From the IMG/VR virus record IMGVR_UViG_2529293015_000003: 43,724 bases of DNA, one strand, 5' to 3'. A program made the position numbers and the translations under genes. Below the pieces are notes generated by a model, which did not search any database, was not told the DNA's origin, and was given only the letters and a program-made list of their open reading frames with translations. Shown one piece after another: positions 3 to 33,968 of this stretch; position 1 is the stretch's first letter; every line of letters begins with the position of its first letter. This DNA comes from a virus (Duplodnaviria; Heunggongvirae; Uroviricota; Caudoviricetes).

Positions 3-2596
<2,594 letters not shown>

Positions 2597-2597
<1 letters not shown>

Positions 2598-2624
2598 GAA
2601 AAGCCCGGCGTTCGGGCTTTTCTG
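2597..2624. terminator. Bidirectional rho-independent terminator between convergent genes
   Basis: Hairpin aagcccg-gcgtt-cgggctt (2601-2619) flanked by an A-run on the left and a T-run on the right. Confidence 0.6.
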
Positions 2625-2643
2625 TTATGACGGGTTCAATTTT

Positions 2644-3642
2644 TTATCCGTTACCGCGCGACGGTTTCTGCGTGATAAACGTCTCAAGCATCTTTTCCGC
2701 AATTGCCGACCAGGTGTGACACTGGACCTTTTCAGCATTTTTCACGCGATCAACGCGAGCAATAACCTCATCCCAATCAATCCGCGACTTGATAACCATA
2801 TGGTTCACCAAAGCCAAGCGATCTGGCGGAAGGCAATCGGGAGGCGTTAATACCAACGCCCCGCACATTGCCGCCTCAAGAACAGTTAATCCAAGGCTTT
2901 CGGGATGCGTAACGATAAAAACGTCACTCTTACGCAATTCAGCTGCAAATTCGGTTGCTGGCACCGGCGTCCGTCTGTATGGAGTTACCGAAATATTCCC
3001 CGGATCAATGGTAACCAATCCATCATCAGTCAACGTTCTGGCCTCATACGGAAAGGTCAGACGCTGAAGGTTCATAAGGATACTTAAGGAGTGATCAAAA
3101 CCACTAACATCAAATGCAGCGTGGTCTACAAAAATACGCAGAACATCGTCTGTTTTGGTTTCCAGATGGAACAGATCCTGATTCGCTGCCCATCCAACAT
3201 GTTTGTTAAAGCGATTATGACGCTCTAACCTGCCGGGATTATCCAGGTACCGCCAGGTATCATCGCGGACAGTAAAAGTAATATCGACTGGTGCCGAATC
3301 CAGCATAGAACCGTCGTATACCTGGGCTACCCATCCAGTGAATCGACGACGCAGTTGCACGCCTATTTCCTTGGGCACCGTAGTAAAATACCGCAATCCT
3401 GGCGCTAAAATGGCTTTCGCAGAACACGAGGTCGCAGCGGTCAACACAGCTTCAACATAATCCTCCGGGCTTTCGACGCCGGGGGAATATGGACGATGGT
3501 ATTGCAATGTTACCCCGGCCTCACTAAAGGCGCAGGCCAGGTTGTAAGCCCACATTTCCGTATATGTTTTCACATCACTGATAGCTTCAAATTTTCGCCC
3601 AATGATCAGGATGTTCATCGGCTTTTCCTCATTCCATTGCAT
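2644..3642 (-). CDS. GT-B fold glycosyltransferase (GT1/GT4-like)
   Basis: C-terminal FIVTHPESLGLTVLEAAMCGALVLTP matches the E-x7-E nucleotide-sugar-binding motif of retaining GT-B enzymes; ATG overlaps the helicase stop (TAATG). Confidence 0.65.
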   Translation of the reverse strand: MQWNEEKPMNILIIGRKFEAISDVKTYTEMWAYNLACAFSEAGVTLQYHRPYSPGVESPEDYVEAVLTAATSCSAKAILAPGLRYFTTVPKEIGVQLRRRFTGWVAQVYDGSMLDSAPVDITFTVRDDTWRYLDNPGRLERHNRFNKHVGWAANQDLFHLETKTDDVLRIFVDHAAFDVSGFDHSLSILMNLQRLTFPYEARTLTDDGLVTIDPGNISVTPYRRTPVPATEFAAELRKSDVFIVTHPESLGLTVLEAAMCGALVLTPPDCLPPDRLALVNHMVIKSRIDWDEVIARVDRVKNAEKVQCHTWSAIAEKMLETFITQKPSRGNG

Positions 3643-5291: not shown

Positions 5292-5367
5292 TGGTGGCCC
5301 CTACCGGACTTGAACCGGTGACCGTGCGATTATGAGTCGCCAGCTCTAACCACTGAGCTAAAGGGCC
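5292..5367 (-). tRNA. tRNA-Ile2 type, anticodon CAT (lysidine-decoded AUA)
   Basis: 76 nt on the minus strand: GGCCCTT acceptor, D-arm TAGCTCAGTGGTTAGAGC, anticodon loop CTCATAA, T-arm ACCGG-TTCAAGT-CCGGT, encoded CCA; near-identical to E. coli ileX as I recall it. Confidence 0.85.
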
Positions 5368-5380
5368 GGATTACGGTTTC

Positions 5381-5488
5381 ATTAGTGCTTCAATGGCGCT
5401 AACAATACCGCCTACAACTATGGCAACAATGATAATGAGAACAATTGGATACTTATCTGCAAAATCCCAGAAACCCATCACTGATCCT
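5381..5488 (-). CDS. Small hydrophobic peptide (35 aa, single predicted TM helix)
   Basis: ATG with AAGGA SD 6-10 nt upstream; translation MGFWDFADKYPIVLIIIVAIVVGGIVSAIEALMKP; too short for the ORF track. Confidence 0.35.
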
Positions 5489-5641
5489 TCGAGACTGTTT
5501 TAAATATCGGCCATACCAATGTTACAGCTACTGCCACCAACGCCCCGTCCGATAAAACTGACAGGATTGTGCTGGTGAAATCCACCAGCACAGATAGCAC
5601 GAGAAAGACCAAAGCCAGAATTAAACGTGCTTTTATAACCA

Positions 5642-6067
5642 TCAGACATACTGTTCCAGTGGCAATTGAAGAGCCTGGGCAATTTTCTTCAATTGCTCCT
5701 GCTCTTCAGCCCCAATGCCATCCTGGTCAGCAATATCAATGCATAGGCACAGAACATCTACCGCATCATTAGTCCCGGACACATCAGCCAGCTCACGTAA
5801 AGCCTGGGCATTAGCTCGGCGCGGCGAGGCTTCATATTGAGCGCGAATATTGGCGCTCATCTGGGCAATTTCACCGGAGAAGGGCGCAAAGGCAGGAAGT
5901 GCTGCAATGGTTTTTTCCAATACTGCAATTTCTTTCGCATCGCAGGTGCCGTCAGAGTATGCAATGGAATATGCGCCCCAGACGGTCGCTTCCACCGCAT
6001 CACGGTTTTCCATCTTCTTGACTCCGCCAGCCGCTTTGCGGAATTTCTTTTTGAGAATGCCGAGCAT
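5642..6067 (-). CDS. TerB-domain protein (P1 TciA-like)
   Basis: 141 aa with TerB-like pattern (acidic/Ala-rich, TVWGAYSIAYSDGTCDAKEIAVLEK); GAGG SD 8 nt upstream of the ATG at 6067. Confidence 0.6.
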   Translation of the reverse strand: MLGILKKKFRKAAGGVKKMENRDAVEATVWGAYSIAYSDGTCDAKEIAVLEKTIAALPAFAPFSGEIAQMSANIRAQYEASPRRANAQALRELADVSGTNDAVDVLCLCIDIADQDGIGAEEQEQLKKIAQALQLPLEQYV

Positions 6068-6330
6068 TTATTAACCTCATTACTGGTTGGGAAATAAGGT
6101 TGCGGTGCCGGGTGCCTCCCGGTGTCCTTTGGCTGGTTATCCACCGTGGACGGGGAAACAAGGAGAAATGAATGGACTGATATAACCGTTTCCCCGCGTG
6201 CGCTTAGCCGCATTCACCGCAATGGTAAGAGCATTTGGCTGACTGAGCGGCGATGACGCCTGTACGCATTTGGTGATCCGGTTCTGCTTCCGGCATTCGC
6301 TTAATTAGCCAAATACTCTTAACGTTGCGA

Positions 6331-6417
6331 TGGCGGAGAGTAATGGAATCGAACCATCATCGCTTGCGCAACGGGACGGCTTTCAAGACCGCTTGAGCAC
6401 CATGCTCCCTACTCTCC
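6331..6417 (-). tRNA. tRNA-like, class II (long variable arm), anticodon loop CUUGAAA (UGA, Ser-type); non-canonical D-arm
   Basis: 87 nt: perfect 7-bp acceptor GGAGAGT/ACTCTCC, discriminator G, encoded CCA, T-arm GATGG-TTCGATT-CCATT; the anticodon stem needs two G-U pairs and the D-loop is short. Confidence 0.3.
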
Positions 6418-6809
6418 AGTGATTGTGGTGGTCGGTGCTGATCTCCGACTGCGCCTCTTTTTTTCATAGCCCATAAGGCCGGTCAGTGCGCTTGATGACT
6501 GAGGCATCGATATTTACTACGCCGCCTCGTTGCCATCGGGCGGACTTGCGCGCCAGCAACACGCATTCACCACAATGTTGAGAACACTGGTTGTCACGCG
6601 GCAACGCAACATTTATTCATAGATTGGGATATGACCCCGTTACGCCAGTGTTCTCAACGTTGTAGTGCCGGTTACGGTTCCGGCCAGGCCTCTTCCTCAA
6701 CGGGGTGTTCTCCATACGGACTACCGTTTATTGGTCGTTCCTGCGGTTTATGTTGTGAAGCCAGATGCTTATCTTCTGGTTGCTTCAAAGAGCTGCGCTT
6801 CCTCACAAC

Positions 6810-6883
6810 GGTAAGGGTACTTCGTAGGGATTCGAACCCTCTGCCAAGCTCGGCGATCTCCGACGTCGCAAAATACCCTTACC
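6810..6883 (-). other. tRNA-like structured element: canonical T-loop closed by a 10-bp perfect inverted repeat
   Basis: ggtaagggta (6810-6819) pairs with tacccttacc (6874-6883); the minus-strand interior carries GGGTTCGAATCCC plus a TCGG-agatcg-CCGA hairpin; 74 nt but no canonical D or anticodon arm could be folded. Confidence 0.3.
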
Positions 6884-6891
6884 TGTTGTGC

Positions 6892-6967
6892 TGGTGCCGA
6901 TTAACGGACTCGAACCGCTGACATCCTGCTTACAAGGCAGGCGCTCTACCAACTGAGCTAAACCGGC
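6892..6967 (-). tRNA. tRNA-Thr, anticodon TGT
   Basis: 76 nt: acceptor GCCGGTT/AATCGGC, D-arm TAGCTCAGTTGGTAGAGC, anticodon stem CCTGC/GCAGG with loop CTTGTAA, T-arm AGCGG-TTCGAGT-CCGTT, encoded CCA. Confidence 0.85.
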
Positions 6968-6969
6968 AT

Positions 6970-7045
6970 TGGCGATGGTGGATGGATTTGAACCATCGAC
7001 CCGTTGATTAACAGTCAACCGCTCTAACCGCTGAGCTACACCATC
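6970..7045 (-). tRNA. tRNA-Asn, anticodon GTT
   Basis: 76 nt: acceptor GATGGTG/CACCATC, D-arm TAGCTCAGCGGTTAGAGC, anticodon stem GTTGA/TCAAC with loop CTGTTAA, T-arm GATGG-TTCAAAT-CCATC, encoded CCA; 2 nt from tRNA-Thr. Confidence 0.9.
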
Positions 7046-7714
7046 ACTTGCCGGGTACGTCTCCGGCGAGGGCTTCCACCTCCGTATGCTTTTCGGCGCA
7101 CCGCGCCCTGGCTGCAATTCGGTAACAGGGGATGCATAACCCTGGCTTCCAGCGTGATTAGCGCCTTCAGCATGACGGGATATACCCGTAGCAAGACGTT
7201 ATTCCTAAATTGCTAAAAGCAATTGCTGTTACGCCGAATGAAAAAGGACGTAACAGGTAAGGACGCTGACCAAAAAGATGGCCCCTTCTCGCTCATCTGG
7301 TTAATCGAACCAGCGCCCTTACCTGTTGTGCCTCCCCGTTCCCTAATACACAGACGGGGACACTCTGCGGTCGATTTTTTGACGGGGGACGACTCATACC
7401 CCGTGGCGTCTGGCTTCTTAGGCCGCTACCATCATCAGATCATCGTTTGCATTTACTTTAATGGTCAGTTTCTAAACCGCCGCAAAGTCGCTAACCATGA
7501 CGAAAACCCTGAAAAAAACGCCCACCCGAAGATGGGCAAACTGGAAGCTCGTAACGCACTTCGGTGTTGCCACTTAGGCGTATGGTCAACCTGGCAACTC
7601 GGCGTCATGATGGGGAAGGAGTCACTACCCCGCCATACTTGCCGCCGCGCCTGTCGCGGCTAACAGCTAAATCGCTCTATAAATCACGATTCATTGAGGC
7701 GATATTACACTAAT

Positions 7715-7731
7715 AAATTTATTAGAGCAAT
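7715..7731 (-). promoter_or_regulatory. C1-repressor-type operator (17/17 match to the P1 consensus ATTGCTCTAATAAATTT on the minus strand)
   Basis: Plus strand reads AAATTTATTAGAGCAAT; overlaps the dmt stop codon (7722-7724). Confidence 0.55.
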
Positions 7732-30155: not shown

Positions 30156-30172
30156 AAATTTATTAGAGCAAA
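30156..30172 (-). promoter_or_regulatory. C1-repressor-type operator (16/17) upstream of the kilA-like operon
   Basis: Plus strand reads AAATTTATTAGAGCAAA. Confidence 0.5.
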
Positions 30173-30250: not shown

Positions 30251-31294
30251 TTAACCTATTGCTACTGGTTTTAACAAACCAGCATCAAGTAGCTTACGAG
30301 TTAACCACTGCTGGCCTTTACCCGTTAATTGGGGCGTCAGCCGTATCTGGTAGCCATTTTCATCATCCAGCACCACTTCTTTCACCGTGAAATACCCGGC
30401 GTTAATGTACTGCTGGCGCGGTACGTTTTTGCGCGCACCAAAAGCCATGAGAATGCCGTTCTGGCGCAACCATGAGAAAAGGGCGTTTTGCTTAAGTCCA
30501 ACGACCTTTGCAAAGTTCCCGATCAGGATTCCATTGGCCACTGATACCCGGTCGGCAAAATCGACTTTAGGGGCTGCGGCCACCAGCTGTTGTTCCAGCT
30601 GCATTTTCTGTTCTGCCAACTCGGCAGCCAGGCGTAGAGCTTCTGGTAATGTTTGGGGGATCGATGGGGCAGGGGAGTTTGCCTGCTGCAATTCTTCCAG
30701 TTTGTCGATCAGCGAACGGCGGACGGCTTTTGATTCGCGTGCGGCGACTCGCAGGGCTTGTTTGTAGGTCATGGTTATGACAACCATAGGCGTACCGCCA
30801 CCTGGCGGCACGGTTGCACTTTTTGTGTAACCGTCCTCACCTTCTAATTCGTCGAGTATTTTTTCGATGAATTTGTTGTTCCGAACCTCTGGTTCCCCAC
30901 ATAACTTACGCGCTTCATTGACCATCTTTAACAGTGTCAGGCTGTCGATTGTGTCTCCGGTGTTGGGGATGATATTCACGGCTGGTGCTGGCGTAGCTGA
31001 CGTAACAGGTGCTGTTTTTTCAACATTCAAATTATTACCGGTCATTCTATGTGCCTCCTTTCTCATTTCTGCTGCCACTGTTGCGTAACGTAGACGTCCT
31101 TGTTCAATCAAATAATCCCTGATCTCGGCTATCAGTAGCCTGTTGATCACAGCCTTATCTGTTCGGGTATAAAAACGTCTGGTTATCATGAAATAGTTGG
31201 CAATTGCGCCGGGGATCTCCCGTGTCGGCATACAGGCAGTATGCAGGGCGATCGCTTCGGCTATTTCATTACGGGTGACGAGAGGTGTTTTCAT
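30251..31294 (-). CDS. Antirepressor Ant-like protein (KilAC-type C-terminal domain)
   Basis: 347 aa; shares its C-terminal domain with the kilA-like ORF; its start overlaps the stop of the upstream small ORF (ATGA). Confidence 0.6.
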   Translation of the reverse strand: MKTPLVTRNEIAEAIALHTACMPTREIPGAIANYFMITRRFYTRTDKAVINRLLIAEIRDYLIEQGRLRYATVAAEMRKEAHRMTGNNLNVEKTAPVTSATPAPAVNIIPNTGDTIDSLTLLKMVNEARKLCGEPEVRNNKFIEKILDELEGEDGYTKSATVPPGGGTPMVVITMTYKQALRVAARESKAVRRSLIDKLEELQQANSPAPSIPQTLPEALRLAAELAEQKMQLEQQLVAAAPKVDFADRVSVANGILIGNFAKVVGLKQNALFSWLRQNGILMAFGARKNVPRQQYINAGYFTVKEVVLDDENGYQIRLTPQLTGKGQQWLTRKLLDAGLLKPVAIG

Positions 31295-31512
31295 AAACCC
31301 CCCTGAACGTCGGCAGAGAAGGGGAGGCTCCAGTAACTAAGTGAATTGCGCGAATTAGTTGAAAAACGGGCTGTAAAAATGCAGGGGCCATCAGGCAATT
31401 GAGAGCGTGCTTCGTCTTCTGTTGCTGCGATAACGAAGTGATAGTGGTGTTTTTGGCAGGAGTAAAAGCGCCAGATAAATTCAGGATGAGTAGGGGTAGG
31501 GATAGTAGCCAC
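31291..31512 (-). CDS. Icd-like small ORF translationally coupled to the ant-like gene
   Basis: 73 codons, GTG start with AAGGAGG SD 8 nt upstream; stop overlaps the ant ATG. An alternative overlapping 81-codon frame (31269..31514) exists. Confidence 0.4.
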   Translation of the reverse strand: MATIPTPTHPEFIWRFYSCQKHHYHFVIAATEDEARSQLPDGPCIFTARFSTNSRNSLSYWSLPFSADVQGGL

Positions 31513-31555
31513 AATGGCAGCCTCCTTTTGCTAATTTAAGGAGCTACCGCGTGAG

Positions 31556-31640
31556 GTTCCAATCTCAATGGCGGTAGCACTGACTGGGTTGGAACTACCG
31601 GCGCAAAAGGGAACCGGCCTGCCTTTCGGCAGCCCAGCCA
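31556..31640 (-). ncRNA. c4-like antisense RNA region (immI-type translational repressor); limits approximate
   Basis: Minus-strand GCUACCGCC is complementary to GCGGUAGC just upstream of the icd-like SD and to a related GCCGGUAGUUCC segment upstream, matching the a1b1/c4/a2b2 layout recalled for P1. Confidence 0.35.
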
Positions 31641-31846
31641 GCACTACCATTGATCTCGGAGCTATGTGCTACGTATGGCTGTGCGATGGCATGACACAAA
31701 AAAAGACGCTTTTGGCGTCTGTGTCGCCTTTTGCATTATCCGGGGTTCCAATCCCAGCATCCGTTTTACTAAGATGCCTGTTTAGGATAAACCGAAAATG
31801 CATTAGCACGCAAGCAAGTTAATGTAGCATATGAAGCTAAAAAAAT

Positions 31847-31863
31847 AAAATAATTAGAGCAAC
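31847..31863 (-). promoter_or_regulatory. Degenerate C1-type operator (14/17) at the immI-like promoter
   Basis: Plus strand reads AAAATAATTAGAGCAAC. Confidence 0.35.
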
Positions 31864-32009
31864 TTGCAACCATGTGAATTATTTCTCTGGTAACTAAAAT
31901 GTATGAGTTTAATTGATATGGGTCAAAGATTTTGACCATTGCATGGTGAAACTGTATGCTACAAAATGTTATTTTAAGGCGTTTTATCTGTGGCAGGAGA
32001 TAGTTAATC

Positions 32010-32360
32010 ATGTCATCTGAACATGTTCGTAAAGGTGTAACAAATGCGAAATTCAATGAAGAGCAATCTAATATTCTCTTTATTGAAATAGGAATTCTGT
32101 CAATACTGATAGGTTTAATGTCTAAATCATGGTGGGCCTTTGGCGGTTCTTTTCTTGGACTGATTTTTAGTTTAAGAATAAAATTTCTGGCAATACCATT
32201 GATGATTGTATTTAGCTTAGTATGGGGAGCTATTGGCTATAGTATTGGTACTTTGTTTGAATCAACAGCAGCAAGTATTGTTTTGGGGGTAATTGCTTTC
32301 CTGAGTGGTTTGGGTACTCATTTTGCGGCCGTGCAATGGGCAAATGATATTGCAGAATAA
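32010..32360 (+). CDS. Small polytopic inner-membrane protein (116 aa)
   Basis: AGGAGA SD; three hydrophobic helices; AT-rich gene. Confidence 0.55.
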   Translation: MSSEHVRKGVTNAKFNEEQSNILFIEIGILSILIGLMSKSWWAFGGSFLGLIFSLRIKFLAIPLMIVFSLVWGAIGYSIGTLFESTAASIVLGVIAFLSGLGTHFAAVQWANDIAE

Positions 32361-32382
32361 TTACAGATAAGAAGCGAAAAGA

Positions 32383-32859
32383 ATGAATATGAGATGGTTT
32401 TTATTATTTGTATCGTTAGTTTCAGCAGGAACATTTGCAAAAATAGATCCTCTACAATGGAATGTAATTGAAGAGAGAGGGGGGAGAGAATATACAATCC
32501 ATAATCATAATGGTGATAAGATAAGTTTTTTATGTGATATGGGATTCATGTATGGTTCACCAGATAGTGCAGGTAGTTTAGGCTTGTTGCTAAGTTCGTC
32601 GAATAATAAAAAAGAGTATAATGCTGACAAGAATAAAATAGTATTAACTATAGATGGTGAGCAATATCCTTTTAGCAATCTTGGATCAATGGTTGGAGAT
32701 TCTTGGTGGTATGCCTTTTGGCAAGATGCAGCAGATTCAAATGCTAATATGATTGATGCTTATGTTGATAATGAAAAAATTGCTACATTCCCTCTTTCTG
32801 GGCTAAGTAAGTTGTATCAACAAGCCAAAATGGATGGATGTATTAAACGAGGCAAATGA
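32383..32859 (+). CDS. Secreted/periplasmic protein (158 aa) with signal peptide
   Basis: MNMRWFLLFVSLVSAGTFA followed by a likely signal-peptidase I site before KIDP; AT-rich gene. Confidence 0.55.
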   Translation: MNMRWFLLFVSLVSAGTFAKIDPLQWNVIEERGGREYTIHNHNGDKISFLCDMGFMYGSPDSAGSLGLLLSSSNNKKEYNADKNKIVLTIDGEQYPFSNLGSMVGDSWWYAFWQDAADSNANMIDAYVDNEKIATFPLSGLSKLYQQAKMDGCIKRGK

Positions 32860-32933
32860 TCTTTCTGTGTTAAAGATTAACGCAATCAATAAAACATTGG
32901 TTGCGTAGTATTCTATTATATAAATGGAATAAT

Positions 32934-33968
32934 ATGACAAAAATTACTAATTCTAATGAGTTGAAGTTACTGTATAAACAGTCAGTGCTCATTCCATCAT
33001 ACAAAGATCACGTAGCGATCTTGCAAAAACAATTAGGAATAGAAAAACATTCTTTTCAAAATATGACAAGATTGAATAGACAAGCTGTAATTAGTAACTC
33101 TCTTCGAAAACAATTGGCTAGTATGCCGAACTTGGCTGGAATAGGCAGCAAGTATCGTGAACATATCGCGATTTTACAGAAACAGACTCAGGCTCTTTTC
33201 CCTCATGACGCAAATAGATATATTCAAATGCTAAGGAAACAGGCCGAAATAGCTATGCCATTACGAAAACAGCTTGAGGTGCTTAATAAGCAAGCTGGTT
33301 TAAATAACATGCAAGCGATACTTAAAGAATTACAACAAAGTGCAAGTTATAAAATAGATGTAAGCCAAGACATAAAGAAAGTACTAGATCACTATGCTAG
33401 AACAAGAAATGCTTCATTACATCAAATAATAGAGCAGGGGATTTCATCTATTGCGCAGGCTTATGCTGAAGGTGCTACTGAAACATCACACACCAAAAGT
33501 AATGTTCAAAACAAAGGATTAAATAAACCTAGCTCAAAGTTTGTTGATTCATTTAAAGAGCTTCCTTATCCTCTGCAATGGTTACTAATGGTTATATTTT
33601 CTCAAGTTGTGTTTGGTGCTTTTATTGATTACGGAAAAGAGAAAACCTTGCTGGGAATACACAAGGCAGAATCATATTTTATATCTCTGTTTGAGGATAA
33701 ACCAATATCAAAGCAACAATTAATTAAAGAAAACAAAGAAATTAGTTGGGAAGATCTCAATGGTTTTCGTTTTATAACTGGTGAGAACGTAAGATTACAC
33801 GTCAGTCCTTCTATAAATAGTGAGGTGATTGAATGCATTGGCAAAAATACTATAGTGGCTGTTTTAGATAAAAAAGATCGCCAATGGCTTTTCGTGCAGG
33901 TTAAATCAGGGGACGAGTTTATTACTGGATGGATTACACGAACATACACAAAGCCTCTTAAGGCTTGA
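32934..33968 (+). CDS. Bitopic membrane protein: repeat-containing N-terminal domain, one TM helix, C-terminal SH3b-like domain
   Basis: Internal tandem repeats (HVAILQKQ...LRKQLASMPNLAG and HIAILQKQ...LRKQLEVLNKQAG), TM helix LQWLLMVIFSQVVFGAFIDY, SH3b-like C-terminus; ATG at 32934 chosen over the track's TTG at 32901. Confidence 0.5.
   Translation: MTKITNSNELKLLYKQSVLIPSYKDHVAILQKQLGIEKHSFQNMTRLNRQAVISNSLRKQLASMPNLAGIGSKYREHIAILQKQTQALFPHDANRYIQMLRKQAEIAMPLRKQLEVLNKQAGLNNMQAILKELQQSASYKIDVSQDIKKVLDHYARTRNASLHQIIEQGISSIAQAYAEGATETSHTKSNVQNKGLNKPSSKFVDSFKELPYPLQWLLMVIFSQVVFGAFIDYGKEKTLLGIHKAESYFISLFEDKPISKQQLIKENKEISWEDLNGFRFITGENVRLHVSPSINSEVIECIGKNTIVAVLDKKDRQWLFVQVKSGDEFITGWITRTYTKPLKA

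Follow-up and report, generated by a model that had tools for sequence, protein, structure and literature searches.

A C4-type antisense RNA module with recognition sequences of its own in the immI region of a P1-like phage-plasmid

The closest described relatives of the locus treated here are the immI immunity operons of phages P1 and P7, in which the small antisense RNA C4 reportedly acts through a series of steps: C4 is processed from its transcript, its a′ and b′ segments pair with the target sites a2 and b2, translation of icd is blocked, and the antirepressor gene ant stays off, an account said to go back to Citron & Schuster (1990, 1992), Biere et al. (1992), Riedel et al. (1993), and Hartmann et al. 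(1995). Citron & Schuster (1990, 1992) are also said to have demonstrated P1 C4 experimentally as a 77-nt RNA, and the P1 record annotates it as an RNA of that length. In P1, an a1b1 leader comes first, a′ and b′ lie inside C4, and a2 and b2 lie at the icd ribosome-binding site. The mechanism is partly summarized in PMC8198154 and PMC12197685. Upstream of C4, a conserved motif, c4-a1b1, has been described as a pair of covarying hairpins, the second of which holds a1 and is followed directly on its 3′ side by b1 (Weinberg et al. 2010). A further system is that of the Salmonella prophage Gifsy-1, the one place where IsrK has been described to accumulate as a short RNA that binds Hfq and to activate antirepressor translation in trans (PMC4825925). 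Here, we describe the corresponding region of IMG/VR virus record IMGVR_UViG_2529293015_000003, a Caudoviricetes DNA of 43,724 nt, referred to below at its full length as the window.

The source of the window is a P1-like (Punavirus) phage-plasmid, as its last 23.7 kb is ~97% identical to SJ46, RCS47, P1, and relatives over 79-88% of the length. On its minus strand the order is C1 operator, a1/b1 leader with terminator, C4, a2/b2, icd, and ant1/ant2, with kilA following, as in the immI regions of P1 and P7; the likeness extends to the C4 fold, the positions of a′, b′, and their targets, the placement of b2 over the icd Shine-Dalgarno sequence, and the ATGA coupling of icd to ant. With a probability of roughly 0.9, we conclude that a P1-like phage-plasmid has its immI immunity operon here and that this operon contains a C4 antisense switch silencing icd and ant. 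The system is a known one; its recognition sequences are its own and form a new specificity allele often found on E. coli plasmids. The match to the RNA family, the fold, all complementarities with their co-variation, and the gene identities were computed directly; processing, repression in trans, heteroimmunity, a decoy role of the leader, and a role for an alternative fold are inferred.

The C4 gene and its contacts with icd

The features of the C4 gene, its contact sites, and its target genes are as follows.

31567 to 31654, minus strand: C4 antisense RNA gene (Rfam RF01695, 76.7 bits against a gathering threshold of 45, model positions 1-87 of 87, E = 2e-13)
31603 to 31610, minus strand: b′, CCUUUUGC, in the loop of C4 hairpin 2, complementary to b1 and b2
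31589 to 31595, minus strand: a′, GUUCCAA, in the single-stranded C4 junction, complementary to a1 and a2
31556 to 31562, minus strand: a2, UUGGAAC, between C4 and icd, complementary to a′ at 7 of 7 positions
31531 to 31524, minus strand: b2, GCAAAAGG, complementary to b′ at 8 of 8 positions and overlapping the icd Shine-Dalgarno sequence AAGGAGG (31527-31521)
31745 to 31751, minus strand: a1, UUGGAAC, in the second leader hairpin, exact complement of a′
31727 to 31734, minus strand: b1, GCAAAAGG, in the leader, exact complement of b′
31291 to 31512, minus strand: icd, cell-division inhibitor of 73 aa with a GTG start (NCBIfam phage_ICD_like, 52.8 bits)
30251 to 31294, minus strand: ant1, antirepressor of 347 aa (Pfam ANT/KilAC, E = 1.3e-30)

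When the window was scanned with Rfam at curated thresholds, three tRNAs, C4 (RF01695), and isrK (RF01394) were matched, and a permissive scan of 31300-32000 returned no further RNA beyond C4 and isrK. A preliminary description of this DNA had proposed a C4-type antisense gene upstream of an icd-like open reading frame (ORF), and such a gene is present, with an expected RNA of ~79 nt. The span then given, 31530-31640, is too short for the gene, which continues beyond it to 31654. Over residues 8-73 the encoded Icd shares 95% identity with P1 Icd, and Ant shares 95% with P1 Ant1 along the entire protein, Met84 (the start of P1 Ant2) included; the internal in-frame ant2 start is ATG 31045, with AAGGAGG ahead of it. 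The overlap of icd and ant in an ATGA, also noted earlier, was found at the ATG 31294-31292 and the TGA 31293-31291.

The minimum free energy (MFE) fold of C4 (-46.4 kcal/mol, z = -5.46 against shuffles) has three helices and is identical to the Rfam consensus structure, with a long outer stem of 16 bp, hairpin 1 carrying a GAAA tetraloop, and hairpin 2 carrying a large loop. The C4 5′-end segment AUGGUAGUGC is the partner of the 3′ outer-stem strand in both the Rfam alignment and the MFE fold. With ends transferred from the P1 annotation, mature C4 would span about 31648-31570, or 79 nt. Its 3′ ...ACCGCCA end and tRNA-like acceptor stem appear compatible with excision by RNase P at the 5′ end, the enzyme that reportedly (Hartmann et al. 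1995) processes C4 in P1.

Homologous loci comprised 80 icd-linked ones from IMG/VR and 120 more found by a pattern anchored on hairpin 2 in which a′ and b′ were left free; 107 of 121 pattern matches fold as C4, and 106 distinct sequences were surveyed for contact sites. Covariation was scored on an alignment of 84 distinct homologues and compared with 500 shuffles. In this alignment, 92.7% of the C4 fold is paired, with a covariation of 0.480 compared to 0.192 in shuffles and with changes on both sides at 18 of 27 pairs.

The a and b sites of the window occupy the same relative positions as those annotated in the P1 record, where a1 TTGACAG and b1 GTTAGTGC lie in the leader and a2 TTGACAG and b2 GTTAGTGA directly before icd, and their sequences are different. 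In the survey, matches of at least 7 nt of Watson-Crick pairing were found for a2 in 100 of the 106 sequences (mean run of 6.85 nt compared to 3.90 nt with partners permuted between loci), for b2 in 94 (7.98 compared to 4.15 nt), for a1 in 100 (6.93 compared to 4.72 nt), and for b1 in 77, or 86 when at least 6 nt were required (6.94 compared to 4.65 nt). The a′:a2 pairing is 99.1% paired in the alignment, with a covariation of 0.682 compared to 0.173 in shuffles, a value reached in none of the 500; slid registers are at most 41.5% paired. The b′ loops of the homologues are each matched to their own b2. Among the 106 homologues there are 17 distinct a′ sequences, 51 distinct b′ sequences, and 66 a/b combinations. 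Altogether, the antisense layout is real, and its recognition sequences change together in matched sets of three.

The window has the anatomy that each step of the P1 mechanism needs, and the steps themselves are carried over from P1. Transcription would start at promoters next to the C1 operator and pass through the a1/b1 leader, where part of it would end at the intrinsic terminator. The read-through transcript would hold the C4 gene, the a2/b2 targets, icd, and ant, and C4 would be excised from it as a ~79-nt three-helix RNA. Pairing of b′ CCUUUUGC with b2 GCAAAAGG over the icd Shine-Dalgarno sequence and of a′ GUUCCAA with a2 UUGGAAC would block icd translation. Because ant is expressed only through icd by the ATGA coupling, the antirepressor would be off, repression by C1 would go unantagonized, and lysogeny would be kept, with the a/b sequences setting immunity specificity. 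In P1, the dependence of ant on icd also runs through Rho-dependent polarity.

The contacts had earlier been placed elsewhere in the gene. The three strings named in the preliminary description do lie on the minus strand where it put them, GCUACCGCC at 31578-31570, GCGGUAGC at 31550-31543, and GCCGGUAGUUCC at 31602-31591, and a three-part layout of the P1 type exists; the segments were mis-assigned to it, however, and the true a and b complementarities were left unnamed. In that description GCUACCGCC was the antisense element that blocks icd via GCGGUAGC near the Shine-Dalgarno sequence, with GCCGGUAGUUCC as an upstream copy of the target. In its favor, the downstream pairing, GCUACCGC (31578-31571) with GCGGUAGC, is a perfect 8-bp complement that is conserved and co-varies. 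However, GCUACCGCC forms the 3′ side of the outer stem of C4 itself and is buried in those 16 bp once C4 is folded, and GCGGUAGC ends 15 nt before AAGGAGG (31527-31521), which makes the quoted distance of 20 nt roughly right but leaves the Shine-Dalgarno sequence uncovered. The upstream partner GCCGGUAGUUCC, which is the 3′ side of hairpin 2 plus the a′ junction, offers 6 bp only (CGGUAG 31600-31595 with CUACCG 31577-31572), lies within the folded C4, and lacks conservation support; this pairing was rejected in the 84 homologues, where it is 60.4% paired compared to 58.5% in shuffles, scores 0.135 compared to 0.122, and is equaled by slides of ±3. Moreover, the contacts annotated in P1 are a and b, which have exact equivalents in the window, and the helix does not fit into a single antiparallel duplex with mature C4, since on the mRNA a2 precedes GCGGUAGC, just as a′ precedes the stem strand on C4. 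That GCUACCGCC acts as the icd-blocking element is thus very improbable.

The same DNA is also annotated as a protein gene. In near-identical plasmids, PGAP places a 39-aa 'ash family protein', WP_001396852.1, exactly over C4 (NZ_CP077546.1, 79084-79203), and the minus-strand ORF 31650-31531 of the window (39 aa) matches Pfam PF10554 (Phage_ASH) with 33 bits against a gathering threshold of 26, while an NCBIfam search gave no match for this ORF. These two annotations, together with the report that translation of the equivalent Gifsy-1 'orf45' matters for anrP expression (PMC4825925), would favor a locus that encodes a small Ash family protein (39 aa, 31650-31531) instead of an RNA. The reading frame varies among homologues, however: from the common AUG it runs for 14 codons in P1, 31 in P7, and 39 in the window, and elsewhere it reads through into the next gene for more than 100. 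The substitutions compensate RNA helices, and C4 is annotated as RNA in the P1 record. The Ash protein was rejected as a real coding sequence on account of its unconserved frame and RNA-compensatory changes, and we see next to no chance that it is the product of the locus. The PF10554 family probably models, at least in part, a translated C4 RNA gene. A correct annotation of the immunity region would replace the hypothetical "ash family protein" with the C4 RNA gene, the leader RNA, and the targets.

The leader RNA, its IsrK identity, and the operator

Two further features lie upstream of C4.

31699 to 31777, minus strand: leader RNA, an a1b1 element of IsrK type (Rfam isrK RF01394, 53.8 bits against a gathering threshold of 50, model positions 1-77 of 77)
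31847 to 31863, minus strand: C1-repressor operator-like site GTTGCTCTAATTATTTT, upstream of the c4 leader, with 14 of 17 matches to the consensus ATTGCTCTAATAAATTT

The leader has two hairpins and a single-stranded b1, and an independent terminator scan placed an intrinsic terminator with a U-run at 31720-31704. Compared to the c4-a1b1 motif, it is of the same shape, and the isrK model additionally spans b1 and the terminator. In 16 of 20 sampled C4 loci, C4 is preceded on its own strand, at a distance of 20-45 nt, by an isrK match, which c4-a1b1 overlaps in two of them; the c4-a1b1 model (RF03163) matches the equivalent place in Gifsy-1 and in three other loci (L123, L155, and L160). In the Gifsy-1 record NC_010392.1 (locus L207, 34076-34329, minus strand), isrK at 34316-34240 is overlapped by c4-a1b1 and is followed by a C4 match of 69 bits at 34214-34131. 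After C4 come a2 UUGGCGU, the element GGUGGUGA, which complements the C4 3′ strand UCACCACC, and b2 AUCACCGGA over the anrP Shine-Dalgarno sequence. The data support that Rfam isrK is the a1b1 leader of C4 modules.

The Gifsy-1 locus (Hershko-Shalev et al. 2016) and the window thus share an isrK leader with a1b1 and terminator, C4, and the series a2, element, and b2. They differ in that Gifsy-1 is a lambdoid prophage rather than a P1-like plasmid, lacks icd and has the antirepressor gene directly after C4, and has UUGGCGU as a and AUCACCG as b. The Gifsy-1 'orf45' starts at an AUG in the C4 5′ end, contains the full C4 match, and ends in an ATGA overlap with anrP; the processed Gifsy-1 species STnc1160, of ~80 nt, is most simply explained as C4. 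The published Gifsy-1 model differs in treating the C4 region as a coding ORF, and P1 and C4 go unmentioned in it (PMC4825925). Our literature searches found no paper linking IsrK to C4; a paper on phage APSE lists both RNAs unconnected.

A competition of a1b1 for C4 was proposed by Citron and Schuster, as cited in the supplement of Weinberg et al. 2010, and by analogy with Gifsy-1 the leader copies of a1 and b1 most likely act as a decoy that competes for C4. Support for this comes from the finding that IsrK in trans raises anrP translation 139-fold and that mutants C159U and C162U derepress anrP (PMC4825925), since nt 159 and 162 of Gifsy-1 lie within a′. Mutations in Gifsy-1 a1 also raise basal expression, which is a poor fit to a simple decoy and indicates that pairing in cis matters too.

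The operator-like site at 31863-31847 aligns column for column with the operators of P1 and P7; GTTGCTCTAATTATTTT is the counterpart of P1 Oc4/Op51 and a putative C1-binding site. The window holds five C1-operator-like sites compared to 0.36 expected by chance. The others lie at 7704-7731 (an overlapping inverted pair), 12260-12276, and 30156-30172. One of them is upstream of kilA, where P1 has OrepL.

Several points weigh against the assignment of this region as a working C4-controlled operon. Production, processing, and activity of the RNA are all carried over by analogy from P1/P7 and Gifsy-1. The hexamers aligned with the P1c4 promoter of P1 are weak (TTGCGT, 18 nt, TATCCT), and a scan with the sigma-70 consensus did not detect a promoter there, returning two other upstream candidates at 31926-31898 and 31878-31850, so that the promoter is assigned by alignment to P1 as the sole basis. 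The c4-a1b1 model has no match in 31300-32000 even at E <= 1, and because only isrK scores, the leader is filed under isrK only. In two P1-like IMG/VR loci, L013 and L015, a1 is two bases off and no longer matches a′ and a2, which still match each other; the a1 match would thus be dispensable for persistence of the module, and the role of a1 is uncertain. Lastly, the predicted balance between C4-folded and leader-paired precursors, described below, varies widely between loci, and P1, P7, and Gifsy-1 favor the C4-folded state.

A co-varying helix and a predicted alternative fold of the precursor

The conserved downstream pairing joins two segments.

31571 to 31578, minus strand: distal 3′ strand of the C4 outer stem, GCUACCGC, which pairs with the C4 5′ end in the fold and is also complementary to 31550-31543
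31543 to 31550, minus strand: element GCGGUAGC, a complement of the C4 3′ stem strand that lies between a2 and b2 and can form a hairpin with 31578-31571 that has a2 in its ~20-nt loop

In the homologues, the last 7-9 nt of the C4 3′ strand have a Watson-Crick complement located at a constant offset between a2 and b2, and the two vary together. The pairs of stem strand and element include UCACCACC/GGUGGUGA, UCGCCACC/GGUGGCGA, CCAUCACC/GGUGAUGG, CCGCCACC/GGUGGCGG, GCUACCAC/GUGGUAGC, CCACCGC/GCGGUGG, and GCUACCGC/GCGGUAGC. On the alignment of 84 homologues, 80.3% of cells of this helix pair, and both bases have changed in 8 of 8 pairs (117 cells); the helix was first identified in one of the aligned sequences, and since the sequences are related, the cell counts overstate the number of independent events. 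Its covariation is 0.454 compared to 0.202 ± 0.015 in shuffles (0/500), and slid registers pair at 34-56%. When stem strands were re-paired with downstream windows across loci, the longest run fell to 4.98 ± 0.13 nt from the observed 6.26 nt (0/1000). Distinct variants of the helix with 7 bp or more number ~10. Where the stem strand changes from C to U, at alignment column 85, the downstream element changes from G to A and the C4 5′ strand keeps its G as a G-U pair, so the element is no mere copy of the C4 5′ strand.

We folded the full precursor, 31777-31483, and found an MFE of -114.4 kcal/mol for a structure in which the leader is paired with a′b′ in cis, C4 is unfolded, and the helix is formed. 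The helix, a1:a′, and b1:b′ belong to one conformer, as all three have the equal probability of 0.41. When the transcript was folded from the C4 5′ end onward, C4 formed and the helix had a probability of 0.08; without the C4 5′ strand, this probability was 0.92. Because the helix forms only with C4 unfolded, the block of translation by C4 does not run through it. In every processing state modeled, the Shine-Dalgarno sequence is predicted to be covered by a local hairpin of UCCUU 31542-31538 and AAGGA 31527-31523. Unconstrained folding of 21 precursors was heterogeneous, and forced conformers were compared instead: over 82 distinct precursors, the median difference was 0.8 kcal/mol, with 61 of the 82 within 5 kcal/mol. 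Of the 56 leader-paired folds, 30 contained the complete helix; no C4-folded one did, an absence imposed by the constraint. A role of the hairpin between stem strand and downstream element as a terminator was rejected, as no U-run follows it in the window or in Gifsy-1.

We put the chances about even that GCUACCGC:GCGGUAGC is a cis element which stabilizes the leader-paired fold, with a2 in its loop, and which would set the shares of transcript that yield C4 and that stay as unprocessed mRNA. The co-variation of the helix is on a par with that of the C4 fold (0.454 compared to 0.480); the helix is all Watson-Crick, and the competing C4 5′ strand tolerates G-U; and the predicted MFE structure of the window precursor holds the helix together with both leader pairings, in line with the near-equal forced folds and the occurrence of the helix in leader-paired ones. 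Two published observations also fit: in some cases a hairpin downstream of C4 overlaps the 3′ half of its outer stem (Weinberg et al. 2010), and the Gifsy-1 transcript gives two conformers on native gels, one of them held by a pairing (PMC4825925) that is identified here as a1:a′. Against a cis role, the support is thermodynamic prediction only, and co-transcriptional folding should favor C4. P1 and P7 have a weaker version of the helix, with 5 bp and a mismatch, and their leader-paired fold comes out 3-5 kcal/mol less stable in the predictions. The helix also fails in 26 of the 56 leader-paired folds, its absence from C4-folded structures is a consequence of the constraint, and relatedness of the homologues leaves fewer independent changes than the counts suggest. 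The record of a laboratory P1, OP279344.1, is identical to wild type in this region, and the immI substitutions of P1vir are given without coordinates in PMC8198154.

The same co-variation, which shows a selected pairing and is compatible with action in cis or in trans, could mean that GCGGUAGC is a third trans contact, invaded by mature C4 with its 3′ end once a and b are paired, or a guide for cleavage of the C4 3′ end. By homology with the P1 ends, the stem strand would lie at the extreme 3′ end of mature C4, free to wrap. However, a trans contact has its sites in parallel, not antiparallel, order relative to a′:a2 and would require the 16-bp outer stem to open, and a guide of 8 bp is too short for RNase III. 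We regard both as unlikely, at clearly longer odds than the cis element.

C4 modules might be three-RNA circuits built on a bistable precursor, in which the terminated leader serves as decoy and the read-through transcript chooses between the C4 fold, which would be processed to give repressor, and a fold that releases no C4, with the leader paired to a′b′ in cis and the C4 3′ strand to the element between a2 and b2. We offer this tentatively and give it somewhat less than even odds. If true, it would merge the literatures on P1 C4 and on Gifsy-1 IsrK/orf45, which do not cite each other at present, and 'orf45' and the 'Ash protein family' would have to be reinterpreted as C4 RNA genes. The extra helix and the identity of IsrK with a1b1 give handles on an old open point in P1 biology, the purpose of a1/b1. 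The co-varying helix of C4 3′ strand and target, and the identity of IsrK with the a1b1 leader, may be of interest to specialists.

Specificity allele, mosaicism, and neighboring genes

The a and b sequences of the window are UUGGAAC and GCAAAAGG, those of P1 UUGACAG and GUUAGUGA, and those of P7 UUAGCAG and GAUUGUGA; the corresponding a′/b′ are GUUCCAA/CCUUUUGC, CUGUCAA/CACUAAC, and CUGCUAA/CACAAUC. As its a′ and b′ are identical to neither, the window represents a different specificity type from P1 and P7. Citron & Schuster (1990) reportedly traced the heteroimmunity of P1 and P7 to a/b differences of similar size. P1 and P7 are indeed heteroimmune (summarized in PMC6906374), and because differences of this size are involved there, the present element should be heteroimmune to both at immI, as judged by sequence. 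This prediction bears on the coexistence and superinfection of P1-like phage-plasmids, elements that in E. coli often carry resistance genes. The allele is uncharacterized but common: 17 plasmids in PLSDB and 25 E. coli records in RefSeq match its 421-nt region with 99% identity or more. Diversity of c4 alleles or the extra helix may already be described in the literature on P1 and D6.

DNA identity to P1/P7 (95%) starts only ~27 nt inside icd, so the leader, C4, the targets, and the first icd codons belong to a different cassette. Upstream of this junction, the closest DNA relatives are D6 (87.7%) and the second c4-ant module of RCS47/JL22 (81-83.5%). The mosaic junction lies at ~31485 inside icd: leader, C4, targets, and the first 7-9 icd codons are D6/RCS47-like, and the rest is 95% P1-like. 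Icd residues 1-9 (MATIPTPTH) are of the D6 Icd type. Residues 12-51, the FtsZ-binding core of P1 Icd (PMC11897509), have their equivalent within the P1-like part of the window Icd. Compared to D6 and JL22, b GCAAAAGG is common to all, and the C4 outer stem and the GCGGUAGC element are shared by the window with D6 and with the second modules of RCS47/JL22. The D6/RCS47/JL22 modules differ in having UUGAGAC as a, 2 nt off the window, and divergent downstream Icd and Ant (Icd 67% identical), and RCS47 has GUCAAAGG as b. The a and b alleles reassort independently in relatives, for example as a P1 b with a P7 a; together with the mosaic junction, this indicates that recombination shuffles immunity specificity. 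Reassortment this free, with 66 combinations among the 106 sequences, suggests a large natural repertoire of orthogonal antisense-target pairs.

In RCS47 (L005) and JL22 (L004), the second leader-C4-icd-ant module lies between pacB and c1, at 1500-3200 in both, besides a normal immI. A second c4-icd region has been reported in D6-like plasmids (PMC6799933).

Compared to P1 and P7, the window has a stronger icd Shine-Dalgarno sequence, AAGGAGG, and its icd begins with GTG (31510-31512), a start found in the window and a few close relatives, with ATG in most relatives including P1. In Ant, a patch at residues ~154-172 (30770-30835, minus strand) reads GEDGYTKSA-TVPPGGGTPMVV in the window and GE-FYTKSAKSHGTRAGRSFEV in P1 Ant1, with surroundings that are 95-100% identical; it looks like a compensated frameshift. 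Downstream of ant lies one further gene.

30086 to 29286, minus strand: KilA-N/KilAC protein

The flank beside the c4 promoter holds simABC in P1 and two membrane/lipoprotein genes in P7; in the window the sim genes are replaced by unrelated genes, namely, three unrelated plus-strand ORFs of 116, 158, and 355 aa at 32010-33968, the last with a weak SH3_3 match. This flank, 32010-33968, is a variable cargo site. The three tRNA genes of the window lie at 5295-7045 on the minus strand, and P1-like phages likewise have such genes.

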